DNA of 64,000 bases from assembly GCA_963827685.1 (NCBI GenBank), contig CAWHBU010000002.1, positions 128,001 to 192,000 of the forward strand, in the 5' to 3' direction. Below are positions 22,557 to 41,697 of this stretch, piece after piece. How positions within the stretch are numbered: position 1 is the first letter of the stretch; each line of letters begins with the position of its first letter. The DNA comes from an uncultured delta proteobacterium (GTDB taxonomy: Bacteria > Desulfobacterota > BSN033 > UBA1163). A program made the translations under genes and the position numbers. The notes below the pieces were generated by a model, which was not told the origin of the DNA, made no database searches, and worked only from the letters and a program-made list of their open reading frames with translations.

Positions 22557-23285
22557 GTGAGATCAATAATGTTTAGATCTGTACAAACTGACCGAATTTC
22601 AAAAATGATTTCGGATCAGATTAAGGAAGCAATCTTCCAAAAAAAAGTTGGAATAGGCGATAAGCTACCTCCGGAACGTCAATTGATGGAACAATTTGAA
22701 GCGAGCCGGGTATCCGTCCGTGAGGCTCTAAGAACCTTAGAGTACTCCGGTATTGTTGAAATCAAGAGGGGGGCTGAAGGAGGGGCTTTCATTAGAGATC
22801 CAAATACCAAGTTTATTAACAACTTCCTACAAGATATCTTTAGCATGGGTAAAGTTAAAGTTTCTGACTTAACTGAAGCCCGTTTAGCAGTGGAACCATT
22901 TTTAGCGAAAATGACAGCAGAACGCATTAATGAAAGTTCCCTTGAACAGCTCAAAGTGAATGTACAAGAGACGAAAGAGTGTTTGAATAAGGGTAACGAG
23001 AGTGATGCCAGGCTACTTAATCTTGAATTTCACCGAATAATTGCGCAGGCGTCTGAAAATCCGGTGATGTTCTTTATGATCGATTCCATCACGGATATTA
23101 TGGAGCGTAACATTTCTTCTATCCCGCTTTCAGTTGAATCCTTGAAACAAATACTTAAGGATCATGAGAAGATTTATTCTGCAACTAAAAACCGAAACCC
23201 TGGAAAAGCGCAGAGTGTAATGCTCAAGCATATCTTGGATATCCAAAGAGCTTTAGAGACATGTAGGAAAGAAACTCCTATTTGA
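22557..23285 (+). CDS. FadR/GntR-family transcriptional regulator
   Basis: GDKLPPERQL...SRVSVREAL plus FCD domain (FHRIIAQASEN). TTGACA about 50 nt upstream. Confidence 0.93.
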   Translation: MRSIMFRSVQTDRISKMISDQIKEAIFQKKVGIGDKLPPERQLMEQFEASRVSVREALRTLEYSGIVEIKRGAEGGAFIRDPNTKFINNFLQDIFSMGKVKVSDLTEARLAVEPFLAKMTAERINESSLEQLKVNVQETKECLNKGNESDARLLNLEFHRIIAQASENPVMFFMIDSITDIMERNISSIPLSVESLKQILKDHEKIYSATKNRNPGKAQSVMLKHILDIQRALETCRKETPI

Positions 23286-23386
23286 GGAAAGAAATGGATC
23301 ACTTATAACATTTATATTTGTTGCCCTTTGGCTGATTCAAACAATAACTCTTGATTTCACAATCTCCATGAAACAAGGATATAACT

Positions 23387-24931
23387 GTGATAATTAAAAT
23401 TCAAGTTCGAAAAAATAATTATTATGATTCAATGATTCTTTTAAGAATCAATACGGAAATTGCAAAGATGCCAGGTGTGCTTAAAGCAGGAATCATGATG
23501 GGAACTGATAGAAACAAAATTATTCTCCGAGATTATGGCTTCTGGAATCGAGCAATGAATGAATCTTGTGCTAGTGATTTGATCATTTGTTTGATGACAG
23601 AAAAGAGAAGAATGCTGGAAATGGCACTTGGAAAAATTGAGACAATGATTCATGAAAGGGTTATTTCACGTAAGAGCAGTTTTCGTTTCTCAAGTTTTGA
23701 TGCTGCTTTTAATGCATTACCAAGTGCCAATTTTTCAATTATATCTATCCCAGGAGATTTTGCAGCCAATGAAGTTCGTAAATCTTTGCGTAAAGGGATT
23801 AATGTCTTTCTCTTTAGCGACAATGTTTCAATTGAAGAAGAAATTGAAGTCAAAAATTTAGCCGTTCAGAAAGGGTTATTGGTGATGGGACCAGATTGTG
23901 GGACGGCCATTATTAATGGGATTAGGTTCGGATTTGCCAATGTAACTCAAAAAGGGCCAGTTGGCATTATAGGTGCTTCCGGGACAGGTATACAAGAGGT
24001 ATGTTGTCTGCTTGAGCAGTTTGGAAATGTGGGGATTTCGCATGCTCTGGGTATAGGGGGGAGGGACTTATCAGATCGAGTAGGAGGACTAATGTGTTTG
24101 ACAGCTATTGATCTGCTGGAAAATGATCGGGATACGCAGATTATTATTATTATTTCCAAACCCCCCGGTGAAAAAACAGGATACAAAATACTTGAAAGGG
24201 TATCAAAATGTAAAAAGCCAGTTATATTAAATTATATTGCTTCCTCTATTGAGAACTCTCTTGACAATAATACAATTTTTGCTTCCACATTCGAGGAGAG
24301 CGCTCAAAAAGCAATAGATAAATTGGGAGGAGCTATAAAAAGGAGGGACGGTTCAGCAAATTCTGATGTATTGAAAGATTGGATTAATGATCAAAGAACG
24401 AGTTTGAGTAAAGGGCAAAAGTATCTTAGGGGAATTTTTTCAGGGGGCTCATTATGTTTAGAAGCATTGGGATTGTTACGGAAGTCTTTGAAAGGAATTT
24501 ATTCAAATGTCCCTTTAGAGGAGAAATACAAACTGAAAGATGCAAAAGTTTCTTTTAAACATTCAATAGTTGATTTGGGGGATGATGAATTTACCTATGG
24601 AAGAGTTCACCCAATGATCGATCCTACCTTAGTTGCAGAAAGGATTCTCCAAGAAGGCAGAGATCCTGAGGTAGCAGTCATAATATTCGATGTAATCTTA
24701 GGTTCCGGGGCGCACCCTAACCCTGCAGCCATATTAGCCGAGGCGGTAAAAGCATTGAGGATGGAGAATGAGAAGAATAAAAGAAATATCATTATGGTTT
24801 CACATGTTTGTGGAACAGTTGGTGATCCGCAAAGGATTTCAATTCAAGAAAAAATGTTAAGAGATGCGAGGGTTTGTCTAGCGACCAGTAATCAGGAAGC
24901 AGTAGAAGCTGTTAAAAGAATTTTTTGTTGA
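23387..24931 (+). CDS. fdrA: FdrA-family protein (succinyl-CoA-synthetase-like; AllF/YahF homologue)
   Basis: NNYYDS, FLFSDNV, MGPDCGT, GASGTGIQE, GGRDLS, DLGDDEFTYGRVHPMIDP. Confidence 0.9.
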   Translation: MIIKIQVRKNNYYDSMILLRINTEIAKMPGVLKAGIMMGTDRNKIILRDYGFWNRAMNESCASDLIICLMTEKRRMLEMALGKIETMIHERVISRKSSFRFSSFDAAFNALPSANFSIISIPGDFAANEVRKSLRKGINVFLFSDNVSIEEEIEVKNLAVQKGLLVMGPDCGTAIINGIRFGFANVTQKGPVGIIGASGTGIQEVCCLLEQFGNVGISHALGIGGRDLSDRVGGLMCLTAIDLLENDRDTQIIIIISKPPGEKTGYKILERVSKCKKPVILNYIASSIENSLDNNTIFASTFEESAQKAIDKLGGAIKRRDGSANSDVLKDWINDQRTSLSKGQKYLRGIFSGGSLCLEALGLLRKSLKGIYSNVPLEEKYKLKDAKVSFKHSIVDLGDDEFTYGRVHPMIDPTLVAERILQEGRDPEVAVIIFDVILGSGAHPNPAAILAEAVKALRMENEKNKRNIIMVSHVCGTVGDPQRISIQEKMLRDARVCLATSNQEAVEAVKRIFC

Positions 24932-25023
24932 TCCTCGTTACGGATATTATGGAGCCAAAATCAGGATAGTAAGATAGTTTATTATTTTTCATTAAAATAC
25001 TTAATATTTGGTAGAGAATCACC

Positions 25024-25911
25024 ATGTTATTACAATTAATAATTAATGGCTTTTTAATTGGATGTGTATACGCATTGGCAGCCGTAGGACTCACCATCGT
25101 ATTTGGGGTTATGAAAATCATCAATTTTGCACATGGTTCTCTACTGATGATAGGCTTATATTTGAGCTATTGGGCGTGGAAGCTACTTGGTATTAATACT
25201 TATTTAACTGCCCTTCTTGTGATTCCAGTTAGTTTTGCTATTGGGTATTACCTGCAAAAATTTGTGATGGAGCCGCTTTTCTCACGTGAGCGTGCGGAAG
25301 TGGTTGAGCCTATTAGTCTTATATTGCTCACTATCGGCCTCTGGATCATGGCAGACAATTTGGCCTTGCTTTTCTTCCGCGCTGATGTACGGAATGTTAG
25401 CACTAGTTTTTCATATTCGTCGTTTATGATCGGAGATTTAATCATCAGCACACCAAAACTTATCGCTTGTTTAACTTCTCTTGTTTCGATAGGAGCATTG
25501 GATCTATTTTTCAAGAAGACCTACATGGGGAGGGCAATTTTAGCAATTTCTCAGGATCGGGAGGCAGCGATCTTACAGGGCATTAACTCATATTATGTTT
25601 TTCGCATTTCTTTCGGAATCGCTACCGCGGTAACCAGTCTATGCGCTGTCCTCATCATCCCATTTTATTATCTGTATCCCACTGTTGGCCTATTTTTTGG
25701 TATCAGAGCATTTGTGATAGTTGTATTGGGAGGAATGGGGAGCTTCACCGGGGCTTTACTTGGGGGAATTATGATAGGACTTATTGAAGGGATAGGCTGC
25801 AATTTTAGTACTTCAAGCGCAGTTGAAGGTTACGTCTTTTTGGGTTTCATTATGATGTTGCTATTCAGACCCTCTGGATTTTTTGGTAAAAAGTGGAGAG
25901 TCGGAGATTAG
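25024..25911 (+). CDS. LIV-type ABC transporter permease (LivH-like)
   Basis: GLTIVFGVMKIINFAHG, VVLGGMGS; hydrophobic. Confidence 0.92.
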   Translation: MLLQLIINGFLIGCVYALAAVGLTIVFGVMKIINFAHGSLLMIGLYLSYWAWKLLGINTYLTALLVIPVSFAIGYYLQKFVMEPLFSRERAEVVEPISLILLTIGLWIMADNLALLFFRADVRNVSTSFSYSSFMIGDLIISTPKLIACLTSLVSIGALDLFFKKTYMGRAILAISQDREAAILQGINSYYVFRISFGIATAVTSLCAVLIIPFYYLYPTVGLFFGIRAFVIVVLGGMGSFTGALLGGIMIGLIEGIGCNFSTSSAVEGYVFLGFIMMLLFRPSGFFGKKWRVGD

Positions 25912-26069: not shown

Positions 26070-27347
26070 ATGGAGAACATTAAACAAAAGATTAAGGAGG
26101 CAAATGAGAGAGCGATCCGGAAAGTATTAGAAGCAGACCCTTACCTCGTCGATACCAAACCAGCCTCCGAAGTCATCCCAGGAATTAAGGACTATTTGCT
26201 TCTTCACGCAGCTCCTAATATCGAATGGGACCGTATGTGTAATCCTCAAAAGGGGGCAGCCATAGGTGCATGTCTTTTTGAAGGATGGGCCAAAACCCCT
26301 GAAGAGGCTATGAAACTCTGCGAGGATGGAAAGGTTACGTTTGATTCAGCCCACAATCACCAGTCTTTGTGTGCTGCGGGTCATATGCTTTCTCCCTCCC
26401 AGATGGTTTTTGTTATTGAAAATCGTAAACACGGGAATAAAGTTTATATTCATATTCAAGAATCCAGATACGTGGCGCTTCGTTACGGTGTATATACACA
26501 AGAGGTTATAGATAACCTCAAGAGAGCGCGTGACATTCTAATGCCAGCATTTGGAGTCGCTTTGAGAAAGGCCGATGGTATAGATCTAATAAAATTTATT
26601 GCCGAATCTCTTCATATGGGGGATGAGGGACACAATAGAAATGTAGCCTCGACTGGTTTGCTTCAGAGACAGTTGATGCCACATATGTTTAAGGGGCGTC
26701 TTGACTATAAATTAATTGAACTTATGGCAAATTTTTTTGAGCAAGAGGCTCAGTTTACAGTTACCATAAAAATGGCAGCGATGAAATGTCGAGTTGATGT
26801 CGCTCATAACATTAAATATAGCACGCTTGTCACAACAATGGGAAGAAATGGCACAACTTTTGGTATTCGAGTGAGCGGACTAGGAGACGAGTGGTTTGTT
26901 TCTCCGGCTCCTGAAGTTAAGGGTTTTTTCTTTCCGGGGTATACAAGAGAAGATGCTGCCTTAGATATGGGTGACAGTGTCGCAACTGAGGTTGGAGGGA
27001 TCGGCGCTTTTTCTTTGGCTGCCGCACCAGCATTGGCGAAGTATGGAGCTACGGTGGGCCTCGGCGGAACATTTGAAGACGCGATGAATACAACACTTAG
27101 GGCCTATGAAATAACTATGGCAGAAGATCCTCGTTTACAAATTCCAACACTAAATTTTCGGGGAGTTCCTGTGGGGATTGATGTGCTGAAGGTTTTAGAA
27201 AAAGGATTCTGTCCTGAAATAACCACGAGTATCGCTCACAATAAGATGAACGGTGCTGGGAAAATTGGTGCTGGGATTGCTATAGCTCCTATGGAATGCT
27301 TCAAGAAAGCGTTCTTGCGGATGGTTGAAAAGTGGGGACTTAAGTGA
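26070..27347 (+). CDS. DUF1116 protein (YlbE/AllG/YahG homologue)
   Basis: LLHAAP, FEGWA, LHMGDEGHNRN, RNGTTFGIRVSG, DMGDS. Confidence 0.88.
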   Translation: MENIKQKIKEANERAIRKVLEADPYLVDTKPASEVIPGIKDYLLLHAAPNIEWDRMCNPQKGAAIGACLFEGWAKTPEEAMKLCEDGKVTFDSAHNHQSLCAAGHMLSPSQMVFVIENRKHGNKVYIHIQESRYVALRYGVYTQEVIDNLKRARDILMPAFGVALRKADGIDLIKFIAESLHMGDEGHNRNVASTGLLQRQLMPHMFKGRLDYKLIELMANFFEQEAQFTVTIKMAAMKCRVDVAHNIKYSTLVTTMGRNGTTFGIRVSGLGDEWFVSPAPEVKGFFFPGYTREDAALDMGDSVATEVGGIGAFSLAAAPALAKYGATVGLGGTFEDAMNTTLRAYEITMAEDPRLQIPTLNFRGVPVGIDVLKVLEKGFCPEITTSIAHNKMNGAGKIGAGIAIAPMECFKKAFLRMVEKWGLK

Positions 27348-27413: not shown

Positions 27414-28499
27414 TTGTGGAAAATGAGTTGTAACAATAAGCGAGGTTTAAAAATTCTTGCTAACGTCAAAATCGAGAAAGTTTTGAGAGGAAAGATAGCT
27501 AAGAAGCACTTTCTATCAGTTTTTTGGGCTCTCGTATTTATTTTGTTTTTCATATTCGTTATTCCGGTGATCGTAGCCGACAAGTATTACCGGCATATGA
27601 TAATAACAATGTTATTTTTCGGCTATATGGCTATGGCCTATAATATTATAAGTGGCTACGGTGGACAATTATCTCTCGGGCATTCGGTTTATGTCGGTAT
27701 AGGTGCTTACACCGCAGCGATTATGTATACTCAATTCGGTATAACCCCTTGGATTGGGATTCTCGCTGGTGGGATAACAGCTGTCCTTAGTAGCTTCGTA
27801 ATAGGCTATCCTTGTTTCCGCTTAGGTGTTCGCGGACCGTATTTTGCTCTTGCAACGCTTGGCTTTTCAGAATTAGTGAGAATTGTTTTCTCAAATACCC
27901 ATAGTTTACTAGGTCTCAAAATTCAAGGAAGTATGGGTATACTGATCCAATCAAAGGGTCAATCGATATTAAGCTTTCAATTTATGAATAAGCTTTATTA
28001 CTATTATATAATACTTGGCCTACTATTAATTGTGATATATGTCACATACGCGCTTGATAAATCGAAGCTGGGCTATTACCTTAAGGCAATTAAAGGTAGC
28101 CAAAGCGCAGCGGAATCATTAGGGGTTCCTCTTACTAAAGTAAAGATGGTGACTAATTGTATTAGCGCATTTTTTACTGGGGTGGGAGGTGTATTCTATG
28201 TCCAATGGATTTTATTTATCAATCCTGAAAGGGTAATGGGTCTTGAATTCAATATCGATTTTTTGGTTTTTTGCTTAGTTGGGGGATTTAGTACATTTTT
28301 AGGGCCTGTCTTAGGAGCTTTTTTATTAGTACCAATTGCAGAAATCACAAGAATCTATTTTGGAACCACTTATTTGGGAAGTCATTTGATAATTTATGGA
28401 GCTGTATTGATATTTAGTGTCTATTTTTTACCTAACGGTATTATAAAACCACTTAGCGATGGATATGATTGGATTTTGGCCAAAGTGCAAAAATGGTAA
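27414..28499 (+). CDS. LIV-type ABC transporter permease (LivM-like)
   Basis: GYGGQLSLGH, GPYFALATL, AAESLGV. Start uncertain. Confidence 0.9.
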   Translation: MWKMSCNNKRGLKILANVKIEKVLRGKIAKKHFLSVFWALVFILFFIFVIPVIVADKYYRHMIITMLFFGYMAMAYNIISGYGGQLSLGHSVYVGIGAYTAAIMYTQFGITPWIGILAGGITAVLSSFVIGYPCFRLGVRGPYFALATLGFSELVRIVFSNTHSLLGLKIQGSMGILIQSKGQSILSFQFMNKLYYYYIILGLLLIVIYVTYALDKSKLGYYLKAIKGSQSAAESLGVPLTKVKMVTNCISAFFTGVGGVFYVQWILFINPERVMGLEFNIDFLVFCLVGGFSTFLGPVLGAFLLVPIAEITRIYFGTTYLGSHLIIYGAVLIFSVYFLPNGIIKPLSDGYDWILAKVQKW

Positions 28500-28518
28500 A
28501 AATTCCTGGAAACGAACC

Positions 28519-29247
28519 ATGAATACAGTTATTGAACTTTGTGATGTAACAAAGAAATTTGGCGGATTGATAGCTCTCAATAAAATAAACATTTTACTGG
28601 AAAAGGGCGAAATATTGGGACTGATTGGCCCAAATGGTGCGGGTAAGTCAACTATATTCAACATGATTTGCAATGTTTATAAGCCTGATGAAGGAAAAAT
28701 TATGATTAGTGGGAAAAATTATCAAAATTATACTCCCGATAGGATCTGTCGCCTAGGTATCGGTAGAACGTTTCAAATAGTTAAACCTTTTGGTAACCTT
28801 ACCGTTCTAAAAAATGTTATGGTGGGAGGATTCTGTAACCTCAGTTCTGAAACAGAAGCAAAGGAACATGCCCTTGAGATACTAGAATTTGTTGGACTTT
28901 ATACAAAAAAAGACAATTTGGCTTATGAGTTACCTGTGGCTAGTCTTAAGAGATTAGAATTGGCGCGAACGCTCGCGACGAATCCTAACATCATCTTACT
29001 TGATGAAGTGATGGCAGGTTTAAATCCCGCGGAGATTGAGCAAATAATTATGCTGATTAAGAAGATGAACGATTCCGGTTGTACACTCTTGGTTATTGAA
29101 CACGTAATGAAGGCCATCATGTCGATATCAGACCGCATAATAGCTCTAAATTTTGGCACAAAAATATTCGAGGGTACCCCAAGGGAGGCTGCTTCGGACG
29201 AAAATGTTGTTAGAGCCTATTTGGGTGGGGAATATGCAATTAATTGA
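28519..29247 (+). CDS. ABC transporter ATP-binding protein (LivG-like)
   Basis: GPNGAGKST, GIGRTFQ, LLDEVMAGL, IEH. Confidence 0.93.
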   Translation: MNTVIELCDVTKKFGGLIALNKINILLEKGEILGLIGPNGAGKSTIFNMICNVYKPDEGKIMISGKNYQNYTPDRICRLGIGRTFQIVKPFGNLTVLKNVMVGGFCNLSSETEAKEHALEILEFVGLYTKKDNLAYELPVASLKRLELARTLATNPNIILLDEVMAGLNPAEIEQIIMLIKKMNDSGCTLLVIEHVMKAIMSISDRIIALNFGTKIFEGTPREAASDENVVRAYLGGEYAIN

Positions 29248-29947
29248 AATTGTAGAGATCAATGTTTTTTATGGCGATGTTCAAGTGATTTGGGACCTCT
29301 CCATGGCTATTTCTAAAGGCGAAATTATAAGTATCGTTGGCTCAAATGGTGCTGGGAAAACCACTATATTAAAAACCATATCGGGTCTGTTGCGTCCAAG
29401 ATCTGGTGAGATCAAATATAAAGGGCAAAACGTATTAAGCATTTTGCCCTCTGATCTAGTTGCGATAGGAGTTGCGCATATTCCGGAGAGACGGAGGCTT
29501 TTTCCAGACCTTACAACCCTTGACAATCTGGAACTCGGAGCTTACACGAGAAAGGCAAGAGTGAAGAAAAATAAAAATTTGGGAAAAGTACTCGATCTCT
29601 TTCCTATCTTAGAAAAGAGGAAAAAACAAGATGCTGGAACCTTGAGTGGCGGTGAACAACAAATGTTGGCTATCGCTCGAGGATTGATGGCCGAACCAGA
29701 GGTTCTCATGTTAGATGAACCTTCACTTGGACTGGCACCCTTGATTACAAAGGAAATTTTCGGAATCATTGAGCAGATAAACAAGAACGAGGGCGTGACA
29801 ATCATGGTAGTTGATCAGAATGTCACAAATGCTCTCCGTATTGCAGACCGAGGATATATCCTGGAGAACGGAAGAATTGCTAATGAGGGAGAATGTTCAG
29901 TTCTTTTGAAAAACGAACAGTTGAAAAAGGCTTATCTTGGCACTTGA
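29234..29947 (+). CDS. ABC transporter ATP-binding protein (LivF-like)
   Basis: GSNGAGKTT, LSGGEQQM, LDEPSLGLAP. Confidence 0.93.
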   Translation: MQLIEIVEINVFYGDVQVIWDLSMAISKGEIISIVGSNGAGKTTILKTISGLLRPRSGEIKYKGQNVLSILPSDLVAIGVAHIPERRRLFPDLTTLDNLELGAYTRKARVKKNKNLGKVLDLFPILEKRKKQDAGTLSGGEQQMLAIARGLMAEPEVLMLDEPSLGLAPLITKEIFGIIEQINKNEGVTIMVVDQNVTNALRIADRGYILENGRIANEGECSVLLKNEQLKKAYLGT

Positions 29948-30102: not shown

Positions 30103-31371
30103 GTGGAGGCAAAACATATGAAAACAAGGCGATACACAAAACAGATTCGTTATGGCATTGCGTTCTTTGCACTCACATTTTTCCTGACTATGGGTATTCG
30201 TACAACGCCACCGAGTATTTGTGCCGAAGAAAAAGTCGTAAAAATTGGTGTCTTACTTCCTATGAGCGGGTTTCTTGCCACCACTGGGGAATGGACCCAT
30301 AATGGAATTAGTTTGGCAGTGGACGACATAAATGATGCGGGCGGTATCAAGTCAATGGGTGGGGCGAGGATAAAGATTATCGTCACAGATAGTAAAGGGA
30401 ATCCCGATGTTGCCATGGCTGAAGCAGAAAGGCTGATTTTGAGAGAAAAAGTTTGTACCATTATAGGAGCTTACCAGAGTTCAACTACTTTTACCTCCTC
30501 TAACATTTCAGAAAAGTACAAGGTACCTTATATGGTGGCCACTGCTGTGAAGAACGAGATCACCGGAAGGGAGGGATTTAAGTACGTTTTTCGTCACACT
30601 GGTAATATTACCTTTAATGCGGCGACTATGGCGAAGTCGTTTTATGAAGTTGCCACAGAGATAGGGTATAAGCTTCAGACTGCTGCAGTCATAGGAGAAA
30701 ACACTGACTTCGGGCAAGGGGCGGAACAAGTTCTGAAGAGGGTATTACCGGAGCTAGGTATAAGAATTGTAATGGTAGAAAGCTACCCATTGACTATCTC
30801 GGATGTTTCCCCAATCATAACTAAGCTGAAGAATGCAAACCCTGATGTTGTTTTCATAACTGGGTATGTGGCCGATACAATTCTTATAGTGAAAACAGCG
30901 GCTGCCTTGAAATTTAAGGTTCCATTTGTTTCATCAGGAGGTGAGAACAACCCAACTTTTCTCAAATCAGTTGGGAACTCAGCTGACTACAATTTTGTGC
31001 GAGGGACTTTTAATAGGGAATTGGCAAGAACAAGGCCTGAACTGAGGGCCATTGTGGATCGATATGAAAAAAAGTTTGGGCTGAAATTGACCACGGAAAC
31101 TGCAGACAACTATGTAACCACCTGGATATTGAAGGATGCTTTAGAAAGAGCCAAGAGCACTGATCCAGAAAAGTTGCGGGAGGCTTTAGCGAAAACAGAT
31201 ATTCCAGCTGGCCAACCGTGGATGATTCAGATGAACGATCGTATTACATTTGATGCTAATGGCCAAAATCCAAGGCCCCCATATATTTTAGTGCAATATC
31301 GAAATGCTGGAGAAAGTGTGGTTTGGCCAAAAAAATATAGACAACTTAAGCCTGTGTTGCCAAAACCGTAA
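30103..31371 (+). CDS. LIV-family substrate-binding protein
   Basis: Signal peptide, KIGVLLPMSG, INDAGGI, GAYQSS. Confidence 0.9.
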   Translation: MEAKHMKTRRYTKQIRYGIAFFALTFFLTMGIRTTPPSICAEEKVVKIGVLLPMSGFLATTGEWTHNGISLAVDDINDAGGIKSMGGARIKIIVTDSKGNPDVAMAEAERLILREKVCTIIGAYQSSTTFTSSNISEKYKVPYMVATAVKNEITGREGFKYVFRHTGNITFNAATMAKSFYEVATEIGYKLQTAAVIGENTDFGQGAEQVLKRVLPELGIRIVMVESYPLTISDVSPIITKLKNANPDVVFITGYVADTILIVKTAAALKFKVPFVSSGGENNPTFLKSVGNSADYNFVRGTFNRELARTRPELRAIVDRYEKKFGLKLTTETADNYVTTWILKDALERAKSTDPEKLREALAKTDIPAGQPWMIQMNDRITFDANGQNPRPPYILVQYRNAGESVVWPKKYRQLKPVLPKP

Positions 31372-34220: not shown

Positions 34221-34697
34221 ATGAAAAGGAGGATTGAACTCAAGGTAAATCAAGAAATATACGAGCTTGAAGTCGAGCCAAGGTCTACATTAGTGAAAGT
34301 CATTCGGGAAAATCTGGGGCTGATAGGAACTAAGTGCGGGTGTGAGAGAGGAGAATGTGGCTCTTGTACTATATTGCTGGACGGATTGCCTGTAAATTCT
34401 TGTCTCATTCTTGCAGTTGAAGCTGAAGGATCTGAGATCTTAACCATAGAGGGTCTAGCTCGAGATGAAAAGCTTCATGTCCTCCAGAAAAATTTTGTAG
34501 AACATGGTGCCATTCAATGTGGGTTTTGTACTCCAGGAATGATTATGACAGCTAAGGGTCTTTTGGATATGAACCCTAGGGCAACAGAGGAAGAGGTGCG
34601 CCAAGCTATAGCCGGTAATTTCTGTCGCTGTACAGGATACGCTCAGATAGTAAAAAGCATTCTATTATCTACCGTAGATTATAAACAAGCTTATTAG
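34221..34697 (+). CDS. Xanthine-dehydrogenase-family 2Fe-2S subunit (CoxS-like)
   Basis: GCERGECGSCT, QCGFCTPG, GNFCRCTGY. Confidence 0.95.
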   Translation: MKRRIELKVNQEIYELEVEPRSTLVKVIRENLGLIGTKCGCERGECGSCTILLDGLPVNSCLILAVEAEGSEILTIEGLARDEKLHVLQKNFVEHGAIQCGFCTPGMIMTAKGLLDMNPRATEEEVRQAIAGNFCRCTGYAQIVKSILLSTVDYKQAY

Positions 34698-34954: not shown

Positions 34955-37285
34955 ATGCAGAAAGACGATTATAATGTGATAGGGAAGAATTTTAGTAAAG
35001 TTGAGGCAATTCAAAAAGTTGTTGGAAATTTGAAATATGCTGGCGATATATTTTACCCCAACTGTCTACATGGAAAAGTACTTAGGAGTCCACATGCACA
35101 CGCAATAATAAAGAGAATAGATACTAATAAAGCGGAGAAGCTTAAAGGTGTGAAGGCGGTTATTACCTACAAGGATGTTCCAAAAATTCCAACTACACAT
35201 AATTCTATTTATCTTTTCCATGTACAATGCTTCGACAGTTTTATTTTGGAAGAAAAAGTGCGGCACGTGGGGGACAGAGTGGCTGCAGTTGCTGCAGTGA
35301 GCCCTGAGATTGCAGAAGAAGCCGCTGAATTAATAGAAGTTGAGTATGAGAAACTGCCAGCAGTTTTTAATCTTATTAAAAGTATGGAACCAAATGCTCC
35401 GGCAATTCATACCATCGTTAGAAGGGGCGCGAATCAAGTTGACATAAAGAATAACATCTTGGCGACCCGAAATATCGGAGATATCGAAACGGGAGATGTG
35501 GATAGAGGTTTTAAAGAATCGGATTTAATAGTTGAAAATGTATTTGAGACCTCTAGACCAAACAACGCTCCACTTGAAAGGACTGTTATTATTTGTTGTC
35601 CTGGGCCTGAAGGTACGCTCGAGGTTTATGCTACTACTCAAAGTATACATACGTTGCGGATGAGTCTGGCAGCTTCACTTGGGATCCCTCTTCATCTAAT
35701 AAATGTTCACCGCGTATATCTTGGTGGGGCTTTTGGTGCACATATTCATATGGGATTCGTTGAACCGATTTGTGCTTTTCTAGCCCTTAAAACAAAACGA
35801 CCCGTAAGAATGGAGAAGACAAGAAAAGAAATGTTTCTTTCGTGTGGACGTCATCCACAAATTATAAAGTTGAAGACCGGGGTTAAAAAAGATGGTACTC
35901 TTGTTGCTCAACACATGGATTTAACCGATGATACCGGCGCTTATGCTACAGGAGCAGAATCGAAGATGCTTCTCCCAGCAGGATTTTTTATGTCCATGTA
36001 TCGATGTCCTAATCAGCGATTTACTGGAAGAACCGTATATACGAACACGCCACCACTCTGTGCAATGCGCGGAGCAGGGAATCCGCAAGTCCACTTTGCC
36101 GTTGAATCACAGATGGATATGATCGCTGAGCAGTTGGGTATTGATCCGATAAAGATTAGATTAAAAAATCTCATCAAAGTGGGCGATACTGTTTATGGGT
36201 TCGGACATGAAAAATTGTACGTGATTCAAAGTGATGGTACTGAAGAGTTGCTGAGGGAAGGGGCTAAACTTATAAATTGGGAGAAGAGGAATAAAATTTG
36301 TTGTGATAAGTCGTGGCTAAGACGTGGTATGGGTGTTTCGAGAGGATTTCACATTTCAGGAATAGGGTCGGAAACCCCCTCCAAGTTTTATTTAGAATAC
36401 ACTGGTGCTATTGTGACAATTAATGGAAATGGAACCGCCAATCTTATCACAGCAAGTGTAGATGCAGGACCTGGGAGTAACACGGTTCATGCTGCTTTGG
36501 CGGCCGAAGAGTTAGGAGTCCGTTTTGAGGATGTTGTGGTTTGTGATAGCGATACAAATACAGCACCTTTTGATTGCCCTACCCATGCTAGTCGTAGTAC
36601 ATACGTCGTTGGATTGGCGGTTCAGAAAGCAGCAAAGCAGGCTAAAGAGATTTTGCTAAAATTGGCATCAGAGATTTTAGAGGCCCCAGCAGACATGCTC
36701 CAAGCAAAAGAAGGAAAAGTATACGTTGTTGGTAGACCCGAATGGTCAATAAGTATAGAAGAAGTTGTTCGCACAGCACAAAATAATAGTTGGGGAACCA
36801 TTATCGGATCTGCTTCCTTAAGGCCGACTACTCGCCCTCCTCAATTTACGGTTGCTTTTTGCGAAGTGGAGGTTGATACACAAACTGGTAATGTAAGGGT
36901 TGTACGCCATATTGCTGGACTTGATGCTGGAACAGTAATAAATAGGCATGCCATTGAGGGGCAGATAATAGGTGGAGTTCACATGGGTCTAGGATATGCT
37001 CTGCTTGAGGACACTATAATAGATGAAACCAATGGGAATGTTTTGACAACCGATTTTACTGACTATAAGACCTTTACAGCAGTTGACATGCCGTCAATAG
37101 TAACAATTATTGCAGATACGTTTGAACCAACGGGTCCATTTGGTGCAAAGGGATGTGGCGAGGGAGTGACCAATCCAGTTGCACCAGCAGTGTGTAACGC
37201 AATTTATAATGCAATAGGGGTTAGAATAAAAAAGTTACCCGTAACGCCTGAAAAAATATTGAGTGCATTAAGAGAAAATGGCTAG
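34955..37285 (+). CDS. Xanthine-dehydrogenase-family molybdopterin-binding subunit
   Basis: RSPHAHA, GGAFG, AMRGAG, ASRST, EGQIIGG, GAKGCGE. Confidence 0.93.
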   Translation: MQKDDYNVIGKNFSKVEAIQKVVGNLKYAGDIFYPNCLHGKVLRSPHAHAIIKRIDTNKAEKLKGVKAVITYKDVPKIPTTHNSIYLFHVQCFDSFILEEKVRHVGDRVAAVAAVSPEIAEEAAELIEVEYEKLPAVFNLIKSMEPNAPAIHTIVRRGANQVDIKNNILATRNIGDIETGDVDRGFKESDLIVENVFETSRPNNAPLERTVIICCPGPEGTLEVYATTQSIHTLRMSLAASLGIPLHLINVHRVYLGGAFGAHIHMGFVEPICAFLALKTKRPVRMEKTRKEMFLSCGRHPQIIKLKTGVKKDGTLVAQHMDLTDDTGAYATGAESKMLLPAGFFMSMYRCPNQRFTGRTVYTNTPPLCAMRGAGNPQVHFAVESQMDMIAEQLGIDPIKIRLKNLIKVGDTVYGFGHEKLYVIQSDGTEELLREGAKLINWEKRNKICCDKSWLRRGMGVSRGFHISGIGSETPSKFYLEYTGAIVTINGNGTANLITASVDAGPGSNTVHAALAAEELGVRFEDVVVCDSDTNTAPFDCPTHASRSTYVVGLAVQKAAKQAKEILLKLASEILEAPADMLQAKEGKVYVVGRPEWSISIEEVVRTAQNNSWGTIIGSASLRPTTRPPQFTVAFCEVEVDTQTGNVRVVRHIAGLDAGTVINRHAIEGQIIGGVHMGLGYALLEDTIIDETNGNVLTTDFTDYKTFTAVDMPSIVTIIADTFEPTGPFGAKGCGEGVTNPVAPAVCNAIYNAIGVRIKKLPVTPEKILSALRENG

Positions 37286-37404: not shown

Positions 37405-38781
37405 ATGAGTAAAGAACACAATCTAGTAAGGTTTTGCCTTGATTTAAATTTTAATGATTTAAGTGGTGAATTAGTTGACCATACAAAAATAGTCGTTATG
37501 GATTCGATTGGGGTTATAGTCGCGGGATTTCATGCCAATCCTATTCATAAAAAATGGGCCCAAAGAACTAAAAACATTGCACCTGGTGATGCTACTATTC
37601 TGGGCGGAGATATCAAAGCTGAAGAAGCCTACACGGCGTTAGCTAATGGAATGGCTGGGACATCATTAGAATTGGATGAGGGTAATCGCTTTAGTGGAGG
37701 CCATCCTGCAATGCATGTTATTCCAGCAGCTTTAGCATTATCAGAAAAAAATAGTAGGAGCGGAAAAGAATTCATCACGGCGGTAGTAGCAGGTTATGAG
37801 ATTGCCTCAAGGGTTGGGAGAGCCCTAGCTCCTTTAAGAAAGGAGAGTCATCCGCACGGAATTTGGGGGGTGATGGGGGCTACGATTGCAAGTGCTAAAT
37901 TGCTGCGGTTAGATTTTAGTCAAACCTACCATGCCGCATCTATAGCTTCCAACTATTCCTTAAATACTTCTTTTGATACGGCACTAGAAGGGGCAACGGT
38001 CCGAGACTCTTATTGTGGTCTAGCAAATTGTTTAGGGATCTTATCAGTTCGATTAGCTCAAAATGGATTTACCGGGCTCAATGAAGGAATAGTTCGACAA
38101 TATACCCATCTCGGGCAAAATGGATTCCAGGAATCTTGCCTACTTGATTCCTTAGGAGAAGTATTTGAGATCTCTAGAAATTATTTTAAAGTTCACGCAG
38201 CCTGTCGGTATACACATGGAGCCTTAGATGCTCTAAATCAAATTATATTTTCCCATGGGCCTATCCCACCAGATGATATCGCTAAGATTGAAGTTTTTAC
38301 ATATAAAGCTGCTGCACGGCTCAGGGACCCTAATCCTAAGAATGCTCTTCAGGCTAAATTTAGTATTCCTTATGCGATGGCCGCTCGTCTCTTTTATGGA
38401 TCTAGCAGAATTGATTCGTTCAAAGATGAATCTATTACTGAGGAGGTCATCCAGTTAGCCCAGAAGGTGAAGGTCTCTGAGAATCCTGATTTTTCTTCTC
38501 AGCTTCCGAATAAGATACCAACAGAGGTAGTTGTGCATCTTTATAATGGTCAAAAATATTCTGCACTTATTGACATTCCTGAGGGCGATACTACAAAACC
38601 CTATTCTCCTCAAATTCTAAAAGAAAAATTTATAGCATTGATGTCTCCCCACGTAGGACCCGATAAAGTGGAAAAGATATTGAAAGTGATTGGAAAAATA
38701 GAAGATATAGAAAACTTACGAAGTTTCACACAACTTTTACATAATGGACCAGTTTCAAGTGATAAACGTATGAGGAGATAA
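37405..38781 (+). CDS. MmgE/PrpD-family protein
   Basis: DSIGV, LELDEG...GHP, AGYE, HPHG, FKVHAACRYTH, AKFSIPY. Confidence 0.9.
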   Translation: MSKEHNLVRFCLDLNFNDLSGELVDHTKIVVMDSIGVIVAGFHANPIHKKWAQRTKNIAPGDATILGGDIKAEEAYTALANGMAGTSLELDEGNRFSGGHPAMHVIPAALALSEKNSRSGKEFITAVVAGYEIASRVGRALAPLRKESHPHGIWGVMGATIASAKLLRLDFSQTYHAASIASNYSLNTSFDTALEGATVRDSYCGLANCLGILSVRLAQNGFTGLNEGIVRQYTHLGQNGFQESCLLDSLGEVFEISRNYFKVHAACRYTHGALDALNQIIFSHGPIPPDDIAKIEVFTYKAAARLRDPNPKNALQAKFSIPYAMAARLFYGSSRIDSFKDESITEEVIQLAQKVKVSENPDFSSQLPNKIPTEVVVHLYNGQKYSALIDIPEGDTTKPYSPQILKEKFIALMSPHVGPDKVEKILKVIGKIEDIENLRSFTQLLHNGPVSSDKRMRR

Positions 38782-38951: not shown

Positions 38952-39134
38952 ATGGAAAAAAGAGAAAAAGAAACTAATAGTATTTTGGGAGAAAAACTTA
39001 AAGTTATCAACATTGGGTTGGAGCTATTTTGCGATGAGTTAAAAAGCCAAGACGTAGAGGTGTTACAGGTAGATTGGGCTCCACCGGCGGGTGGGGACAA
39101 AGAAATAGCCAAAATTTTAGAAAGTTTAATCTGA
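38952..39134 (+). CDS. Small FdrA-associated domain protein (stand-alone FdrA C-terminal / YahG N-terminal module)
   Basis: VINIGLELFCDELKSQDVEVLQVDWAPPAGGD matches the INxG..F...L........W.P.AGG module. Confidence 0.8.
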   Translation: MEKREKETNSILGEKLKVINIGLELFCDELKSQDVEVLQVDWAPPAGGDKEIAKILESLI

Positions 39135-39310
39135 ATTCTTGGGCGGTAGGACTTTTTACATTGAAATGTGGGTTGGTTTGAACAAATGTGATTATATATT
39201 ATGACGTTGGTTTCCATATTTGCATGGATTTCAATTGGCATGATTTAAGTTGTCTATGCAAATCGTAAGGCAAATTTAGAGGTATCGAAAACTTACGAGA
39301 GTCCTTTATA

Positions 39311-40237
39311 ATGGAAATACTTAAAGCTATATCCTCAACTCCTGAAGTGTTAACCAAGATTTCCCAATCAAAAACATTGGGTAAAATCATTGGGGTTTAT
39401 GACCGAGCTTTGAATTTTCGACTGACTGATGGAAGCATTATAGGTGTTATAGAGATGACAGCAGGTAATTGTCCAGGCAATATTGTGATATCATGCTTTT
39501 CTAGTATTAATTCTGAAATCGAGGCTGGAACTAATGTATACCTATATCCGTCTTTTTTGCGGATAGGGGGTGTGCTAATTATTTCTCTTGAAAATATGAA
39601 ACTATGGAACCCAAAAGTGGGGCTTCAATCCAATTTATCTCACCAATCAATTATAGAAAACAAGGTGATTAAAATAATAGTAAAAACGAGAGGATCTGCA
39701 AAAGGGTCTGGACCACTTATCCCTTATGCCTTCCAAATCAGCCGCGGGTTTAACTTTTCTTCTCCAAATTCTGTATGGGGAAAACTTTTTGCGCCTCACT
39801 TAGTTGGTATTTGTCAGGGCATTATTGAGGGAGATCGCAAAAAAATAGAAGAAAACTTTTCGCAGATTATCGGAATGGGTCCTGGCCTAACTCCCTCAGG
39901 GGACGATATCATGGTCGGATTATTTGGTTCTCTTTATCCAATTCTTTGCTCCTTTGGGCAAGATCCTCTTTCTCTTCCCATATGGCCCTCTGTTGATTGG
40001 ATTAGAGGAACGACCTGGTTTGGGGATTCCCTTGTCTACCATAGCCTTAGGGGAGAACTCGCACAGCTGGTTCAGAGCGTTATTTTGGGAATTTTAACTG
40101 AAAAGGTAGATTTGGAGATCTCTTTACTTAAACTTCTAAGCATGGGGGCAAGCTCAGGACATGATACACTCCTCGGAATACTATTGGGAGTATTGGTAGG
40201 GTTGGAAATTAAGAAACAGAAAAATCTAAGTAACTAA
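39311..40237 (+). CDS. DUF2877 protein (YlbF/AllH/YahE homologue)
   Basis: IGMGPGLTPSGDD and GASSGHD motifs. Confidence 0.88.
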   Translation: MEILKAISSTPEVLTKISQSKTLGKIIGVYDRALNFRLTDGSIIGVIEMTAGNCPGNIVISCFSSINSEIEAGTNVYLYPSFLRIGGVLIISLENMKLWNPKVGLQSNLSHQSIIENKVIKIIVKTRGSAKGSGPLIPYAFQISRGFNFSSPNSVWGKLFAPHLVGICQGIIEGDRKKIEENFSQIIGMGPGLTPSGDDIMVGLFGSLYPILCSFGQDPLSLPIWPSVDWIRGTTWFGDSLVYHSLRGELAQLVQSVILGILTEKVDLEISLLKLLSMGASSGHDTLLGILLGVLVGLEIKKQKNLSN

Positions 40238-40306
40238 GCTAATAGGCTTTTCAGGATGATGTTTAATGCGGTATCAAAAAAAATGAAGTTTTTGCTGCTA
40301 ATTTTC

Positions 40307-40692
40307 TTGATGAATTGACAGTCAAGATAAATGTGAATTTAAAGGTGTTTCAAGCCGCCATGGATGAATATAATCAAACCTGTGATAGCAGGTATGATTA
40401 CCTATTTGCTAAGGAAGCAAAGTATTTGTAGCCCGGAAAACACCGAAGTTTTATGCCATAAAGTGTTACCCTCACTTTTTGGGTACCTTAGGGAGAATTA
40501 AGATCAACCATAAGACAGAGGTTCTGAGGAAAAAGGGTGAGGTAATCCCAGGAATTTATGCCATCGAGAACGATGGCGGAGGGGATGTACGGAGATAGTT
40601 TTGATCTATGGTCAACAGGTGGGGCATGGGGCTTTGCCGCTAATTCTGGGCGCATTGCTGGAGAGAATGTTCTGAGGCACATCGGCAAATAA
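40307..40692 (+). pseudogene. Remnant C-terminus of an FAD-binding (fumarate-reductase-like) flavoprotein
   Basis: Manual translation across one stop and frameshifts: LDEL...DEYNQTCDSRYDYLFAKEAKYL*...PKFYAIK...GTLGRIKINHKTEVL...VIPGIYA...GGMYGDS...GFAANSGRIAGEN. Confidence 0.75.
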
Positions 40693-40749
40693 TAGACCTT
40701 GACCAACTGGTAGCGAAACGAGCCTGCATCAAGAAATCATAGAGGTTGA

Positions 40750-41697
40750 ATGATGGATCCAAGGTTTGCTGTTCTGGCAATCGGGGGGAATTCTTTAATA
40801 AAAGATAAAAACAGCGTATCTTTATCCTCACAGTACGAAGCGGTCAAGGAGACAGCGAAATATATAGCCGATCTCATTGCAGAGGGCTTGAGCATCGTGA
40901 TCACCCATGGCAATGGCCCTCAGGTAGGTTTTATCTATAGAAGAGGGGAACTTGCCCGTCACGAGCTTCCTCTTATTCCCTTAGACATCTGTGGAGCTGA
41001 CACACAAGGGGCAATCGGGTACATGATTCAAAAAGCGCTTCTGAACGAGTTCCGCAAGAGGGGAATTAAGAAGAAGGTGACCGCAGTGGTGACGCAGACA
41101 ATTGTGAGCAGAGACGACCCGTCCTTTCAGTATCCAACAAAACCAATCGGTTCCTTTATGTCGGAGGAAGATGCCCTCGTCAGTAAGAAGGAATTCGGTT
41201 GGCAGGTTGTAGAAGATGCAGGTCGGGGTTACAGGCGTGTCGCTCCCTCCCCCGCATCGAGAGAGATCATTGAATTGGATGTTATCAAGTTATTGGTGGA
41301 AAGTGGTTACATTGTGATTGCTGCAGGTGGAGGCGGAATTCCTGTTATAAAGAATGAACAGGGTGATCTGGAGGGAGTTGAAGCCGTTATTGATAAAGAC
41401 CTAGGGTCTTCTCTTTTAGCCAGAAATCTTGGGGCAGATACTTTCATTATTTCGACGGCCGTTGATGCTGTCTATTTAAACTTTGGTAAGAAGCGTCAGA
41501 GACCTATTCGCCATGCCACTTTGCTCGAAATAAAACGACATTTGGCGGAAGGGCATTTCAAACCAGGATCGATGAAACCAAAAATCGAGGCCATTATTGG
41601 GTTCCTTGAAGGCGGCGGGAAAAAGGGGATAATAACCTCGCCGGAGAATCTCCTTGAATCGATTAGGGGGGGATGTGGGACGACGATCGTGAAATAA
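40750..41697 (+). CDS. arcC: Carbamate kinase
   Basis: AIGGNSL, THGNGPQVG, TQGAIGY, PTKPIG, EDAGRGYRRV, EAVIDKD, GSMKPK. Confidence 0.95.
   Translation: MMDPRFAVLAIGGNSLIKDKNSVSLSSQYEAVKETAKYIADLIAEGLSIVITHGNGPQVGFIYRRGELARHELPLIPLDICGADTQGAIGYMIQKALLNEFRKRGIKKKVTAVVTQTIVSRDDPSFQYPTKPIGSFMSEEDALVSKKEFGWQVVEDAGRGYRRVAPSPASREIIELDVIKLLVESGYIVIAAGGGGIPVIKNEQGDLEGVEAVIDKDLGSSLLARNLGADTFIISTAVDAVYLNFGKKRQRPIRHATLLEIKRHLAEGHFKPGSMKPKIEAIIGFLEGGGKKGIITSPENLLESIRGGCGTTIVK

Follow-up and report, generated by a model that had tools for sequence, protein, structure and literature searches.

Introduction

In Escherichia coli, the AllF, AllG, and AllH proteins convert oxalurate and phosphate to oxamate and carbamoyl phosphate, from which the carbamate kinase AllK then makes ATP (PMC11326118; PMC9843812). 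Oxalurate is the sole known substrate of the AllFGH family (PMC11326118). Here we describe a gene cluster in which members of the same three families, FdrA (AllF), DUF1116 (AllG), and DUF2877 (AllH), stand together with a carbamate kinase, a molybdenum (Mo) hydroxylase, a cyclic amidohydrolase, an MmgE/PrpD-family protein, and an ATP-binding cassette (ABC) importer of the leucine/isoleucine/valine (LIV) type. The cluster lies at positions 22557–41697 of a 64,000-nucleotide stretch of DNA (hereafter, the window) from an uncultured delta proteobacterium of the Desulfobacterota, an anaerobe of sediments (GenBank assembly GCA_963827685.1, contig CAWHBU010000002.1, positions 128,001 to 192,000). 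In our judgment there is an even chance that this island is a mosaic operon, acquired horizontally, for the catabolism of an imported cyclic ureide that probably carries a carboxyl group and has a pyrimidine-, hydantoin-, or imidazolone-type ring; the ureide would be decarbamoylated by phosphorolysis with capture of ATP. No paper on this gene combination was found in a literature search that left subscription journals outside its scope.

Several described systems resemble parts of this arrangement. The oxidative pyrimidine pathway consists of uracil dehydrogenase, barbiturase, and ureidomalonase, and its acylurea is hydrolyzed to urea, not phosphorolyzed. E. coli itself has a paralogous system, YahE-YahF-YahG-YahI-YahJ, to which an amidohydrolase-family gene is linked; the same literature search, again with subscription journals outside it, found no functional paper on the Yah cluster. 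In nitrifiers, stand-alone allFGH-allK modules are accompanied by BmpA-type ABC importers (PMC12625717). The reductive uric acid/2,8-dioxopurine pathway of anaerobes employs XdhD or XdhAC, YgfK, SsnA, HyuA, YgeW, YqeA, YgeY, and YgeX (PMC12507026; bioRxiv 10.1101/2025.04.24.650524), and ATP capture by YgeW and YqeA has been demonstrated in anaerobic urate breakdown (bioRxiv 10.1101/2025.04.24.650524). This last example is the nearest working analogue of what we propose, and the principle of the ATP capture is therefore already known.

The cluster shares with the All system the three protein families and the carbamate kinase, and phosphorolysis with ATP recovery would be expected from this likeness (PMC11326118; PMC9843812). 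It differs in that its proteins are only 36–39% identical to their E. coli counterparts, its AllG falls outside the allantoin-type clade, and its FdrA consists of a body and, 14 kb away, the product of a separate gene for a 60-amino-acid (60-aa) tail. Moreover, the genes have no allB/C/D/E context, are interleaved with a LIV-type ABC importer, and share the cluster with genes for a Mo hydroxylase, a hydantoinase-class enzyme, and a PrpD-family protein. The Yah system is slightly nearer, and YahF is tail-less too, but in the Yah system the tail forms the N-terminal end of YahG, and in the window it is a free open reading frame (ORF). The window amidohydrolase gave no match to YahJ at E≤1e-3, and the Yah system lacks a Mo hydroxylase, a PrpD-like protein, and an ABC importer. 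The nitrifier modules are like the window in having an adjacent importer and no upstream allantoin genes; they differ in the class of the ABC importer and in having no Mo hydroxylase, cyclic amidohydrolase, or PrpD gene (PMC12625717). With the urate pathway the cluster shares a xanthine dehydrogenase-family Mo enzyme, cyclic amidohydrolases, a carbamoyl-transferring enzyme, an ATP-giving carbamate kinase, and an anaerobic host, whereas its carbamoyl step would fall to an FdrA/DUF1116/DUF2877 enzyme instead of one with the ornithine transcarbamylase (OTC) fold, and a PrpD-family protein is present. None of the YgfK-, SsnA-, YgeW-, YgeX-, and YgeY-type families was found among the 15 named genes of the cluster by Pfam scans, nor among the 11 of them that were also scanned with NCBIfam.

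Organization of the Gene Cluster

A preliminary description of the window, made from its letters and its ORFs, had listed the classes of genes named above. All of them were found on the + strand within 22557–41697 in the ORF list and in Pfam and NCBIfam scans, and the 15 named genes are intact open frames. The content of that list thus stands, but its order does not, the transporter genes being interleaved with fdrA and allG. Two features were absent from it: the 60-aa ORF at 38952–39134 and a flavoprotein relic at 40413–40692. In the following list, positions are those of the window, and GC3 is the G+C fraction at third codon positions.

22557–23285, + strand: GntR/FCD-family transcriptional regulator (PF00392, PF07729; GC3 0.38), first gene of the low-GC3 island
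23387–24931, + strand: FdrA/AllF/YahF-type subunit, body only, 514 aa (NF004760)
25024–25911, + strand: LIV-type ABC permease, LivH-like, between fdrA and allG (PF02653)
26070–27347, + strand: DUF1116/AllG/YahG-type subunit (PF06545)
27414–28499, + strand: LIV-type ABC permease, LivM-like (PF02653)
28459–29247, + strand: ABC ATPase, LivG-like (PF00005, PF12399)
29153–29947, + strand: ABC ATPase, LivF-like (PF00005); its true start is probably later than the listed TTG, which overlaps livG
30103–31371, + strand: periplasmic binding protein of the LIV/amide/urea class (PF13458, 210 bits)
31580–32944, + strand: cyclic amidohydrolase of the hydantoinase/dihydropyrimidinase class (best family TIGR02033, below its cut-off)
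33212–34093, + strand: Mo-hydroxylase flavin adenine dinucleotide (FAD) subunit (PF00941, PF03450)
34221–34697, + strand: Mo-hydroxylase [2Fe-2S] subunit (PF01799, PF00111)
34955–37285, + strand: Mo-hydroxylase molybdopterin subunit (PF02738, PF20256, PF01315)
37405–38781, + strand: MmgE/PrpD-family protein (PF03972, PF19305)
38952–39134, + strand: 60-aa ORF, free-standing FdrA-tail segment, likely a fourth subunit
39311–40237, + strand: DUF2877/AllH/YahE-type subunit (PF11392; GC3 0.34), last gene of island composition before the kinase
40413–40692, + strand: relic of an FAD_binding_2 flavoprotein, last ~95 codons with one frameshift (blastx)
40750–41697, + strand: carbamate kinase (TIGR00746)

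A Split FdrA and a Probable Fourth Subunit

The FdrA protein of the window scores 450 bits against NF004760 (cut-off 433), AllG 233 bits against PF06545 (cut-off 27), and AllH 59 bits against PF11392 (cut-off 25); all three pass the curated cut-offs of their families, and AllG and AllH are each single-copy in the genome. AllG also matches the structure 3clq in the Protein Data Bank (PDB), an uncharacterized protein, with 344 bits. FdrA is 36% identical to E. coli FdrA and 39% to YahF, AllG is 39% identical to YlbE and 41% to YahG, and the carbamate kinase is 39% identical to YbcF and 52% to YahI. In a maximum-likelihood tree of 15 rows, YlbE and a protein of Enterococcus gilvus form a clade (support 100/99) that excludes the AllG of the window. 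The Enterococcus gene belongs to a textbook cluster, allD-allC-allE-allD-fdrA-DUF1116-DUF2877-arcC...allB. The proteins are thus members of the FdrA/DUF1116/DUF2877 family, and their AllG lies outside the allantoin-type group. The label “oxamate transcarbamylase” is premature, the All and Yah systems being equidistant and AllG standing apart from the allantoin-cluster clade.

The match of the window FdrA to its profile covers positions 3–489 of 555, and the missing C-terminal segment is found in the 60-aa ORF between the PrpD-like gene and allH. This ORF is 45% identical to residues 501–554 of E. coli FdrA and 40% identical to residues 2–53 of E. coli YahG. The FdrA of the window is thus split. 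In other words, a segment of about 55 residues is the C-terminus of FdrA in E. coli, as it is also inside fdrA in Enterococcus gilvus, the N-terminal extension of YahG in E. coli, and a free ORF here. A homologue of the tail was found by tblastn beside fdrA/allG in nine of 10 loci from the same phylum (L016–L025), and also at L103; at the remaining AllG locus without a tail match, the contig stops just past allG. The enzyme is therefore likely, by this comparison of proteins, to consist of four polypeptides with the 60-aa ORF as the fourth subunit. These comparisons define a short conserved segment that can be part of FdrA, part of DUF1116, or a free ORF, and its occurrence in these three states suggests that it probably links the subunits. 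It should be mentioned that the G-H-x-G motif, a phosphohistidine motif of the succinyl-CoA-synthetase type, occurs once in E. coli FdrA and not at all in the window FdrA; we draw no conclusion from this.

The Cyclic Amidohydrolase and the Allantoin Pathway

The preliminary description had noted the absence from the window of allantoate amidohydrolase, ureidoglycine hydrolase, and ureidoglycolate dehydrogenase. The absence of allC, allE, and allA holds genome-wide, in an assembly of 5.2 Mb on 14 contigs that is 94.5% complete with 8% contamination. A family search of the genome gave no AllC match, and tblastn with E. coli AllA, AllC, and AllE gave no match at E≤1e-5. The AllD family has one weak match, of the Ldh_2 type, on another contig (194 bits; cut-off 496). 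The allantoicase family had no genome match, but the same search matched no control genome either and is thus uninformative.

The amidohydrolase scores best against the dihydropyrimidinase/D-hydantoinase family TIGR02033, without passing its cut-off (337 bits; 393.25), and also remains below all of the allantoinase cut-offs (TIGR03178, 268 against 358; NF004839, 283.5 against 631; NF005960, 219 against 688). It is 30% identical to E. coli AllB, and its top solved relatives are D- and L-hydantoinases. It aligns over its full length with the D-hydantoinase 1k1d, with histidines at the positions of His58 and His60 and a lysine at that of Lys150; the later metal-centre residues (His, His, and Asp, not numbered here) were read by eye from the same alignment. 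According to the residue roles and stereochemistry gate loop (SGL) definitions for 1k1d (PMC7175128), SGL1 is three residues shorter in the window protein, SGL3 carries a seven-residue basic insert with two arginines, and alanine stands at the position of Phe159. Similar basic inserts occur in the PrpD-linked homologues L030, L064, and L031–L040, and are absent from the AllB proteins of E. coli and Enterococcus and from a dihydropyrimidinase-like protein of two relatives (G124 and G011). As far as a loop in an alignment can be read, the insert hints at a substrate with an anionic substituent. The missing allC, allE, and allA, the scores below the allantoinase cut-offs, and a loop unlike that of AllB bear out the earlier view that the cluster differs from a canonical allantoin system.

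The PrpD-Like Protein and Its Module

The PrpD-like protein does not reach the family of the 2-methylcitrate dehydratase PrpD (NF042438, 42 bits; cut-off 950) and matches superfamily Pfam domains only; its label in the protein atlas is likewise “MmgE/PrpD family” only. In the PDB it comes closest to cis-aconitate decarboxylase (97 bits) and iminodisuccinate (IDS) epimerase (82 bits). Relatives at 70–95% identity were found in metagenomes only, followed by proteins at 44% or below in Methylobacterium, haloarchaea, and others; the single metagenome scan for loci did not recover these close relatives. As possible substrates, the preliminary description had offered uracil through barbiturate and a hydantoin through parabanate, with the same logic as the oxidative pyrimidine pathway, that is, ring hydroxylation and then hydrolysis to an acylurea. 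That pathway needs no PrpD-family step, and these substrates leave unexplained the PrpD-family enzyme, whose known relatives act on polycarboxylates. The barbiturase/AtzD family had no genome match, in a search that matched no control genome either.

We compared 80 genome loci, each holding a relative about 40% identical to the PrpD-like protein; the neighbours were clustered and one representative per cluster was scanned. The five LIV-type ABC genes occur in 59–64 of the 80, mostly directly adjacent, and an FAD_binding_2 flavoprotein in 46. HyuA is present in 30 and HyuB in 28, a lyase of the phosphoenolpyruvate (PEP)-mutase/isocitrate-lyase type in 24, the large and small aconitase subunits in 20 and 18, two clusters of isochorismatase-family hydrolases in 12 and 8, and Asp/Glu racemases in 10. 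A homologue of the amidohydrolase was found in 14 of these loci and in 10 of 15 metagenome loci. The closest such homologues, 51% identical, lie directly upstream of the PrpD-like gene at L029 and L030; at L030 the amidohydrolase gene is preceded by a GntR regulator, a carbon-nitrogen (CN) hydrolase, and an octopine-dehydrogenase-like protein, and at L029 it is followed by TctBA/TctC tricarboxylate-type transporter genes. At L037, the adjacency of the Mo-hydroxylase large subunit (67% identical) and then the PrpD-like gene (63%) is kept.

Biuret, triuret, and ureidoacrylate hydrolases belong to the isochorismatase family (PMC12625717). Three types of carbamoyl- or amide-removing enzymes, namely isochorismatase-type, CN-hydrolase, and, here, FdrA-type, thus seem to occupy the same position in the module. 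The PrpD-like protein and the LIV-type ABC genes make up a conserved module, which from these neighbourhoods we infer to serve the breakdown of cyclic amides or ureides that carry carboxyl groups and are taken up from outside. By analogy, a CN-hydrolase (L030) or an isochorismatase in the decarbamoylating slot of relatives would fit a ureide intermediate.

The flavoprotein of this module persists here as a relic. In the 512-bp gap between allH and the kinase, blastx detects 46% identity over 57 residues to positions 387–439 of a 481-residue flavoprotein that adjoins the PrpD-like genes in L062 and L104, with a weak continuation in the next frame (E 1.7–3.7); no close copy exists elsewhere in the genome.

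A large unstudied cluster is shared by the alphaproteobacteria Methylobacterium, Microvirga, Neorhizobium, and Phreatobacter (loci L042–L119, for example L074, 2248–17477). It holds large and small aconitase-like subunits, a GntR/UTRA regulator, a LIV-type ABC system, a PrpD-like protein, a PEP-mutase/isocitrate-lyase (ICL)-type lyase, HyuB, HyuA, an isochorismatase, Asp/Glu racemases, and an FAD_binding_2 flavoprotein.

The Molybdenum Hydroxylase

The three subunits carry the Pfam domains of the Mo-hydroxylase superfamily, together with its conserved glutamate near the C-terminus, and all of them remain below every NCBIfam equivalog cut-off. The scores are 568 (cut-off 780), 244 (310), and 185 (217) bits against the xanthine dehydrogenase equivalogs XdhA (NF043082), XdhB, and XdhC, and 549 (995) and 171.5 (258) bits against the alpha (TIGR03194) and gamma subunits of 4-hydroxybenzoyl-CoA reductase; the FAD subunit matches the beta subunit of the latter in two pieces, with 140 bits (cut-off 405). 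The glutamate lies in a G-A-K-G-x-G-E stretch that aligns with the same motif of carbon monoxide dehydrogenase (CODH), and the Cys loop of CODH is absent. This glutamate has a catalytic role in Mo hydroxylases. The position that we take to correspond to the xanthine-binding glutamate of bovine xanthine oxidase is not occupied by glutamate in the window protein.

At least eight further full-length Mo-hydroxylase large-subunit genes were located in the same genome by tblastn, most with FAD and 2Fe-2S matches adjoining (C2:58947–62613, C2:1255552–1259178, C4:677891–680512, C5:122875–126549, C6:194746–198388, and three places on C7).

An Imported Island and a Resident Kinase

From the GntR regulator to AllH, GC3 is 0.29–0.40, compared with 0.46–0.58 in the upstream flank and 0.58–0.60 in the downstream oxidoreductase genes. 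By its composition, this part of the cluster is a foreign, horizontally acquired low-GC3 island. AllG was found in 12 of 401 sampled genomes of the phylum, this one included, with a best match of 44% identity, and not in the sampled genome of the same genus.

The carbamate kinase has a GC3 of 0.475 and passes the equivalogs TIGR00746 (372.7 bits; cut-off 358.25) and NF009007 (400 bits; cut-off 266). Copies 77–81% identical occur in G124, G011, and G327, three members of the same family without AllG; in these the kinase comes after argF, a dihydropyrimidinase-like gene, and pyrB, with pyrE next in line. In the same-genus genome the kinase is reduced to a fragment interrupted by stop codons. The genome studied here has its argF, a pyrC-like gene, and pyrB about 420 kb from the cluster, with no kinase among them, and the copy after allH is the only one. 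The kinase is thus a resident gene of the bacterial family and not a part of the imported island. CarB is present in the genome, and the kinase is therefore unneeded for biosynthesis; the position of the sole resident kinase at the end of an imported island fits selection for coupling, although it falls short of proof.

In G124 (L128, 1–13900) and G011 (L129), the kinase closes a run of Mo-hydroxylase subunits, an argF-like ornithine transcarbamylase (OTCase), a 2Fe-2S subunit, a dihydropyrimidinase-like gene (TIGR02033, 392.4 bits; cut-off 393.25), and a pyrB-like aspartate transcarbamylase (ATCase), with pyrE after it. This run may be a second Mo-hydroxylase/ring-opening/transcarbamylase/kinase pathway, or merely a set of biosynthetic genes.

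Other Genomic Contexts of FdrA and DUF1116

In the phylum sample, seven loci from the bacterial family f39 have no Mo hydroxylase, amidohydrolase, or PrpD-like gene by tblastn, and four of the seven have the kinase; L023, the f39 locus that was scanned, holds a Bmp-type ABC importer, AllH, AllG, FdrA, a small ORF, the kinase, and a protein of the OTC/aspartate transcarbamylase (ATC) fold. The f39 loci resemble the stand-alone allFGHK modules of nitrifiers (PMC12625717). At L016, by comparison, Mo-hydroxylase subunits lie directly upstream of FdrA, a small ORF, and AllG, and are accompanied further on by a cyclase-family protein, an Amidohydro_3 protein, and a Bmp importer. In Embleya, a CN-hydrolase, a Mo hydroxylase, a xanthine/uracil permease, and PucR adjoin AllH-FdrA-AllG. 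An operon on plasmid p4 of Azospirillum brasilense (NZ_CP032343.1, 478651–492877; L150, L151) combines a gamma-glutamyltransferase, a LIV-type ABC importer, a three-subunit Mo hydroxylase, an SRPBCC protein, an amidase, an “oxalurate catabolism protein HpxZ”, and a distant DUF1116 protein, with EtfAB, the electron transfer flavoprotein (Etf), and an FAD oxidase divergent from it.

A DUF1116 gene without FdrA or DUF2877 was observed on Rhodococcus opacus pR1CP1 (NZ_CP009112.1, 212860–221081; L135), behind an FCD regulator and among short-chain dehydrogenase/reductase (SDR) oxidoreductases and two glutamine-synthetase-family genes.

Strain Variation

A variant about 3% divergent, from wetland metagenomes of another study, has the same order from LivH to AllH, with the kinase past a variable spacer. 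This allH-kinase spacer differs by strain: the X2 form skips 40220–40735, and X4 has 1361 extra letters at 40262/40268, a length that would fit an intact flavoprotein gene. In addition, the X2, X3, and X4 contigs show joints of the “opposite strands” and “goes back” kinds at 33005–33150, an intergenic region with the amidohydrolase gene on one side and the FAD-subunit gene on the other, and these suggest a small inverted or rearranged segment in a related strain.

Proposed Pathway

In the single-pathway reading, to which we gave an even chance above, the LIV-type ABC system would import the compound, and the three-subunit Mo hydroxylase would oxidize a ring carbon adjoining nitrogen. The amidohydrolase would then open the ring to an N-carbamoyl compound, which would be an acylurea if the oxidized carbon bears the ureido nitrogen; oxidation of that carbon is what would turn the product of a hydantoinase into an acylurea. 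With phosphate, the four-part enzyme of FdrA, the 60-aa tail, DUF1116, and DUF2877 would cleave off the carbamoyl group as carbamoyl phosphate, which the adjacent carbamate kinase would convert to ATP, NH3, and CO2. Finally, the PrpD-family protein would act on the polycarboxylate skeleton by dehydration, decarboxylation, or epimerization. In favour of this reading are the intact, co-oriented, and interleaved genes; the family scores of FdrA, AllG, AllH, and the kinase; the lack of allC, allE, and allA; the PrpD-linked relatives of the amidohydrolase and its basic SGL3 insert; the sole, resident kinase right behind the island; and the three-subunit Mo hydroxylases and nucleobase-type importers that adjoin FdrA/DUF1116 genes at L016 and in Embleya. 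The acylurea is the weakest link, suggested by the family's single known substrate and by chemical logic, and the order of hydroxylation, then ring opening to the acylurea, is pure conjecture on our part.

A more specific version is possible but rather doubtful. It would be an oxidative pathway, not described before, that gains ATP from a carboxylated cyclic ureide and in which a Mo hydroxylase has replaced the flavoprotein of an older reductive or hydrolytic PrpD-type module, leaving the relic behind. That exchange would make the ring-opened product an acylurea, to be cleaved by a four-polypeptide member of the FdrA/DUF1116/DUF2877 family with the free 60-aa ORF as linker subunit and a substrate other than oxalurate, and a kinase of the host would have been recruited.

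The following points weigh against a single pathway. The AllFGH-like proteins are only 36–41% identical to either E. coli system, which makes the type of reaction an extrapolation, and AllG forms a long branch of unresolved placement that falls outside the allantoin clade. The amide left by phosphorolysis of an acylurea would, judging from the chemistry, find no amidase in the cluster. Among solved structures, the Mo subunit comes closest to a reductase (4-hydroxybenzoyl-CoA reductase), and XdhD of the anaerobic urate pathway works reductively (PMC12507026). The pairing of the parts is also rare: a Mo hydroxylase occurs at three and AllG at one of the 80 PrpD-like loci, and a Mo hydroxylase at one of the 10 AllG loci of the phylum sample. 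The Mo subunits of the L016, Embleya, and Azospirillum loci are only 27–33% identical to that of the window, so that what recurs is a pairing of enzyme classes and not of orthologues. Of the flavoprotein that belongs to the PrpD module, the window keeps a relic, and the pathway may therefore be rewired or partly decayed. In the wetland contigs X2 and X3, a 1-nt deletion inside allH (window position 39699) would shift the frame unless compensated, with eight further indels present. Finally, the island is a mosaic, and co-location may overstate functional unity.

Alternative Explanations

It is unlikely, though deserving of attention, that the enzyme is a true oxamate carbamoyltransferase that scavenges oxalurate, either imported or derived from parabanate, with the Mo-hydroxylase, amidohydrolase, and PrpD-like genes separate or upstream. 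Parabanic acid does hydrolyze to oxaluric acid at neutral pH (PMC5703782), and no other substrate of the family is known (PMC11326118). Stand-alone allFGH-allK modules with ABC importers exist in nitrifiers (PMC12625717), as they do at the f39 loci, and on the Azospirillum plasmid, genes whose annotation points to oxalurate catabolism accompany a LIV-type ABC system and a Mo hydroxylase. The AllG of the window, however, lies outside the clade of YlbE and the Enterococcus allantoin cluster (100/99), the proteins are as near to the Yah as to the All system, the transporter is interleaved with allF and allG yet is of the type that accompanies PrpD-like genes, and an oxamate-using enzyme is not evident in the island. 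As for an ordinary anaerobic allantoin pathway in an unusual layout, AllFGH and a kinase are indeed present and the amidohydrolase has its 30% identity to E. coli AllB. We consider this reading very improbable and largely refuted, since the genome lacks allC, allE, and allA and has allD only as the weak Ldh_2 relative on another contig, the allantoinase profiles score below their cut-offs and under the hydantoinase profiles, the substrate loop is unlike that of the two AllB proteins, and the canonical cluster, as in Enterococcus gilvus, looks different.

Hydantoinase-class enzymes normally yield alkyl-ureido acids, which makes a route without an acylurea conceivable: the Mo enzyme would be a reductase or dehydroxylase, or would act after ring opening, and the FdrA-type enzyme would phosphorolyze an alkyl-ureido acid. 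The Mo subunit has 4-hydroxybenzoyl-CoA reductase (1rm6_A) as its nearest solved relative, with 366 bits compared with about 200 for xanthine oxidoreductases, and genes of anaerobe type lie nearby (Etf, 2-oxoacid:ferredoxin oxidoreductase, radical S-adenosylmethionine). XdhD, moreover, reduces urate in an anaerobic pathway (PMC12507026). In G124, the nearest Mo large subunit compared (44% identical) is encoded together with the dihydropyrimidinase-like gene, classical OTC/ATC-fold transcarbamylases, and the orthologous kinase, the Mo-hydroxylase genes being interleaved with this set. This route is nevertheless quite unlikely in our view, because the FAD subunit matches the reductase beta subunit poorly and in two pieces (140 against 405 bits), and known pathways use classical transcarbamylases for alkyl-ureido compounds, the only known substrate of an FdrA-type enzyme being an acylurea. 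Distinctly improbable, finally, is a mere juxtaposition of decaying modules (PrpD/ABC/amidohydrolase minus its flavoprotein, AllFGH, and the Mo hydroxylase) without a single working pathway. The frameshifted relic, the spacer that varies between X2 and X4, the allH deletion in X2 and X3, the rarity of AllG and Mo hydroxylases at PrpD-like loci, and the absence of the island from the closest sampled same-genus genome would agree with it. Against this, all of the 15 other genes are intact, the LivH-AllH order is kept in the divergent strain of another study, L037 keeps the adjacency of the Mo large subunit and PrpD at 63–67% identity, and the interleaving of the transporter with allF and allG would be hard to maintain without co-selection.

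Flanking Genes and Other Features

Immediately downstream, 42023–44699 (+ strand) encodes a GlcD-like FAD-linked oxidase (PF01565/PF02913) and a CCG/4Fe-4S protein (PF02754). They belong to a longer + strand run, 42023–51555, that comprises the GlcD-like oxidase, the CCG Fe-S protein, EtfB, EtfA, a 695-aa Fe-S/CCG protein, and a four-subunit 2-oxoacid:ferredoxin oxidoreductase. The GlcD-like gene scores 182 bits against the GlcD equivalog (cut-off 568). The GC3 values of the first two genes are island-like (0.36 and 0.42), and their homologues, at most 31% identical, occur in four relatives only; the two genes are possibly a downstream extension of the operon. The whole run may have a role in the pathway, such as that of a ureido-hydroxyacid dehydrogenase that would make the acylurea. 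GC3 is at host values from EtfB onward, however, and no comparative link was found, with two exceptions: EtfAB and the FAD oxidase beside the Azospirillum DUF1116 gene, and oxidoreductase genes 74% identical near AllH/AllG in L022.

Within the cluster, the regulator passes no NCBIfam equivalog, and the binding protein remains below every NCBIfam cut-off, with 8wch as its top PDB match (163 bits). No Rfam family was found in 21000–52000, and neither promoter-like sites (55, against 49 in shuffled sequences) nor terminator-like sites (16, against 15.6) were in excess of the shuffles.

Implications

The genes of the AllFGH enzyme were identified only in 2024, and the family has one known substrate; the cluster described here sets the enzyme in a different chemistry. 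The combination of a LIV-type ABC system and a PrpD-like protein forms a widespread, unstudied module, which is found in haloarchaea, Methylobacterium, rhizobia, and Desulfobacterales. The setting of a Mo hydroxylase, a hydantoinase-class enzyme, and a PrpD-like protein is a place to seek a second substrate of the family and a new route of substrate-level phosphorylation in anoxic sediments. If the doubtful version with the exchanged flavoprotein were true, it would provide that second substrate, as well as the first clue to the Yah system of E. coli.

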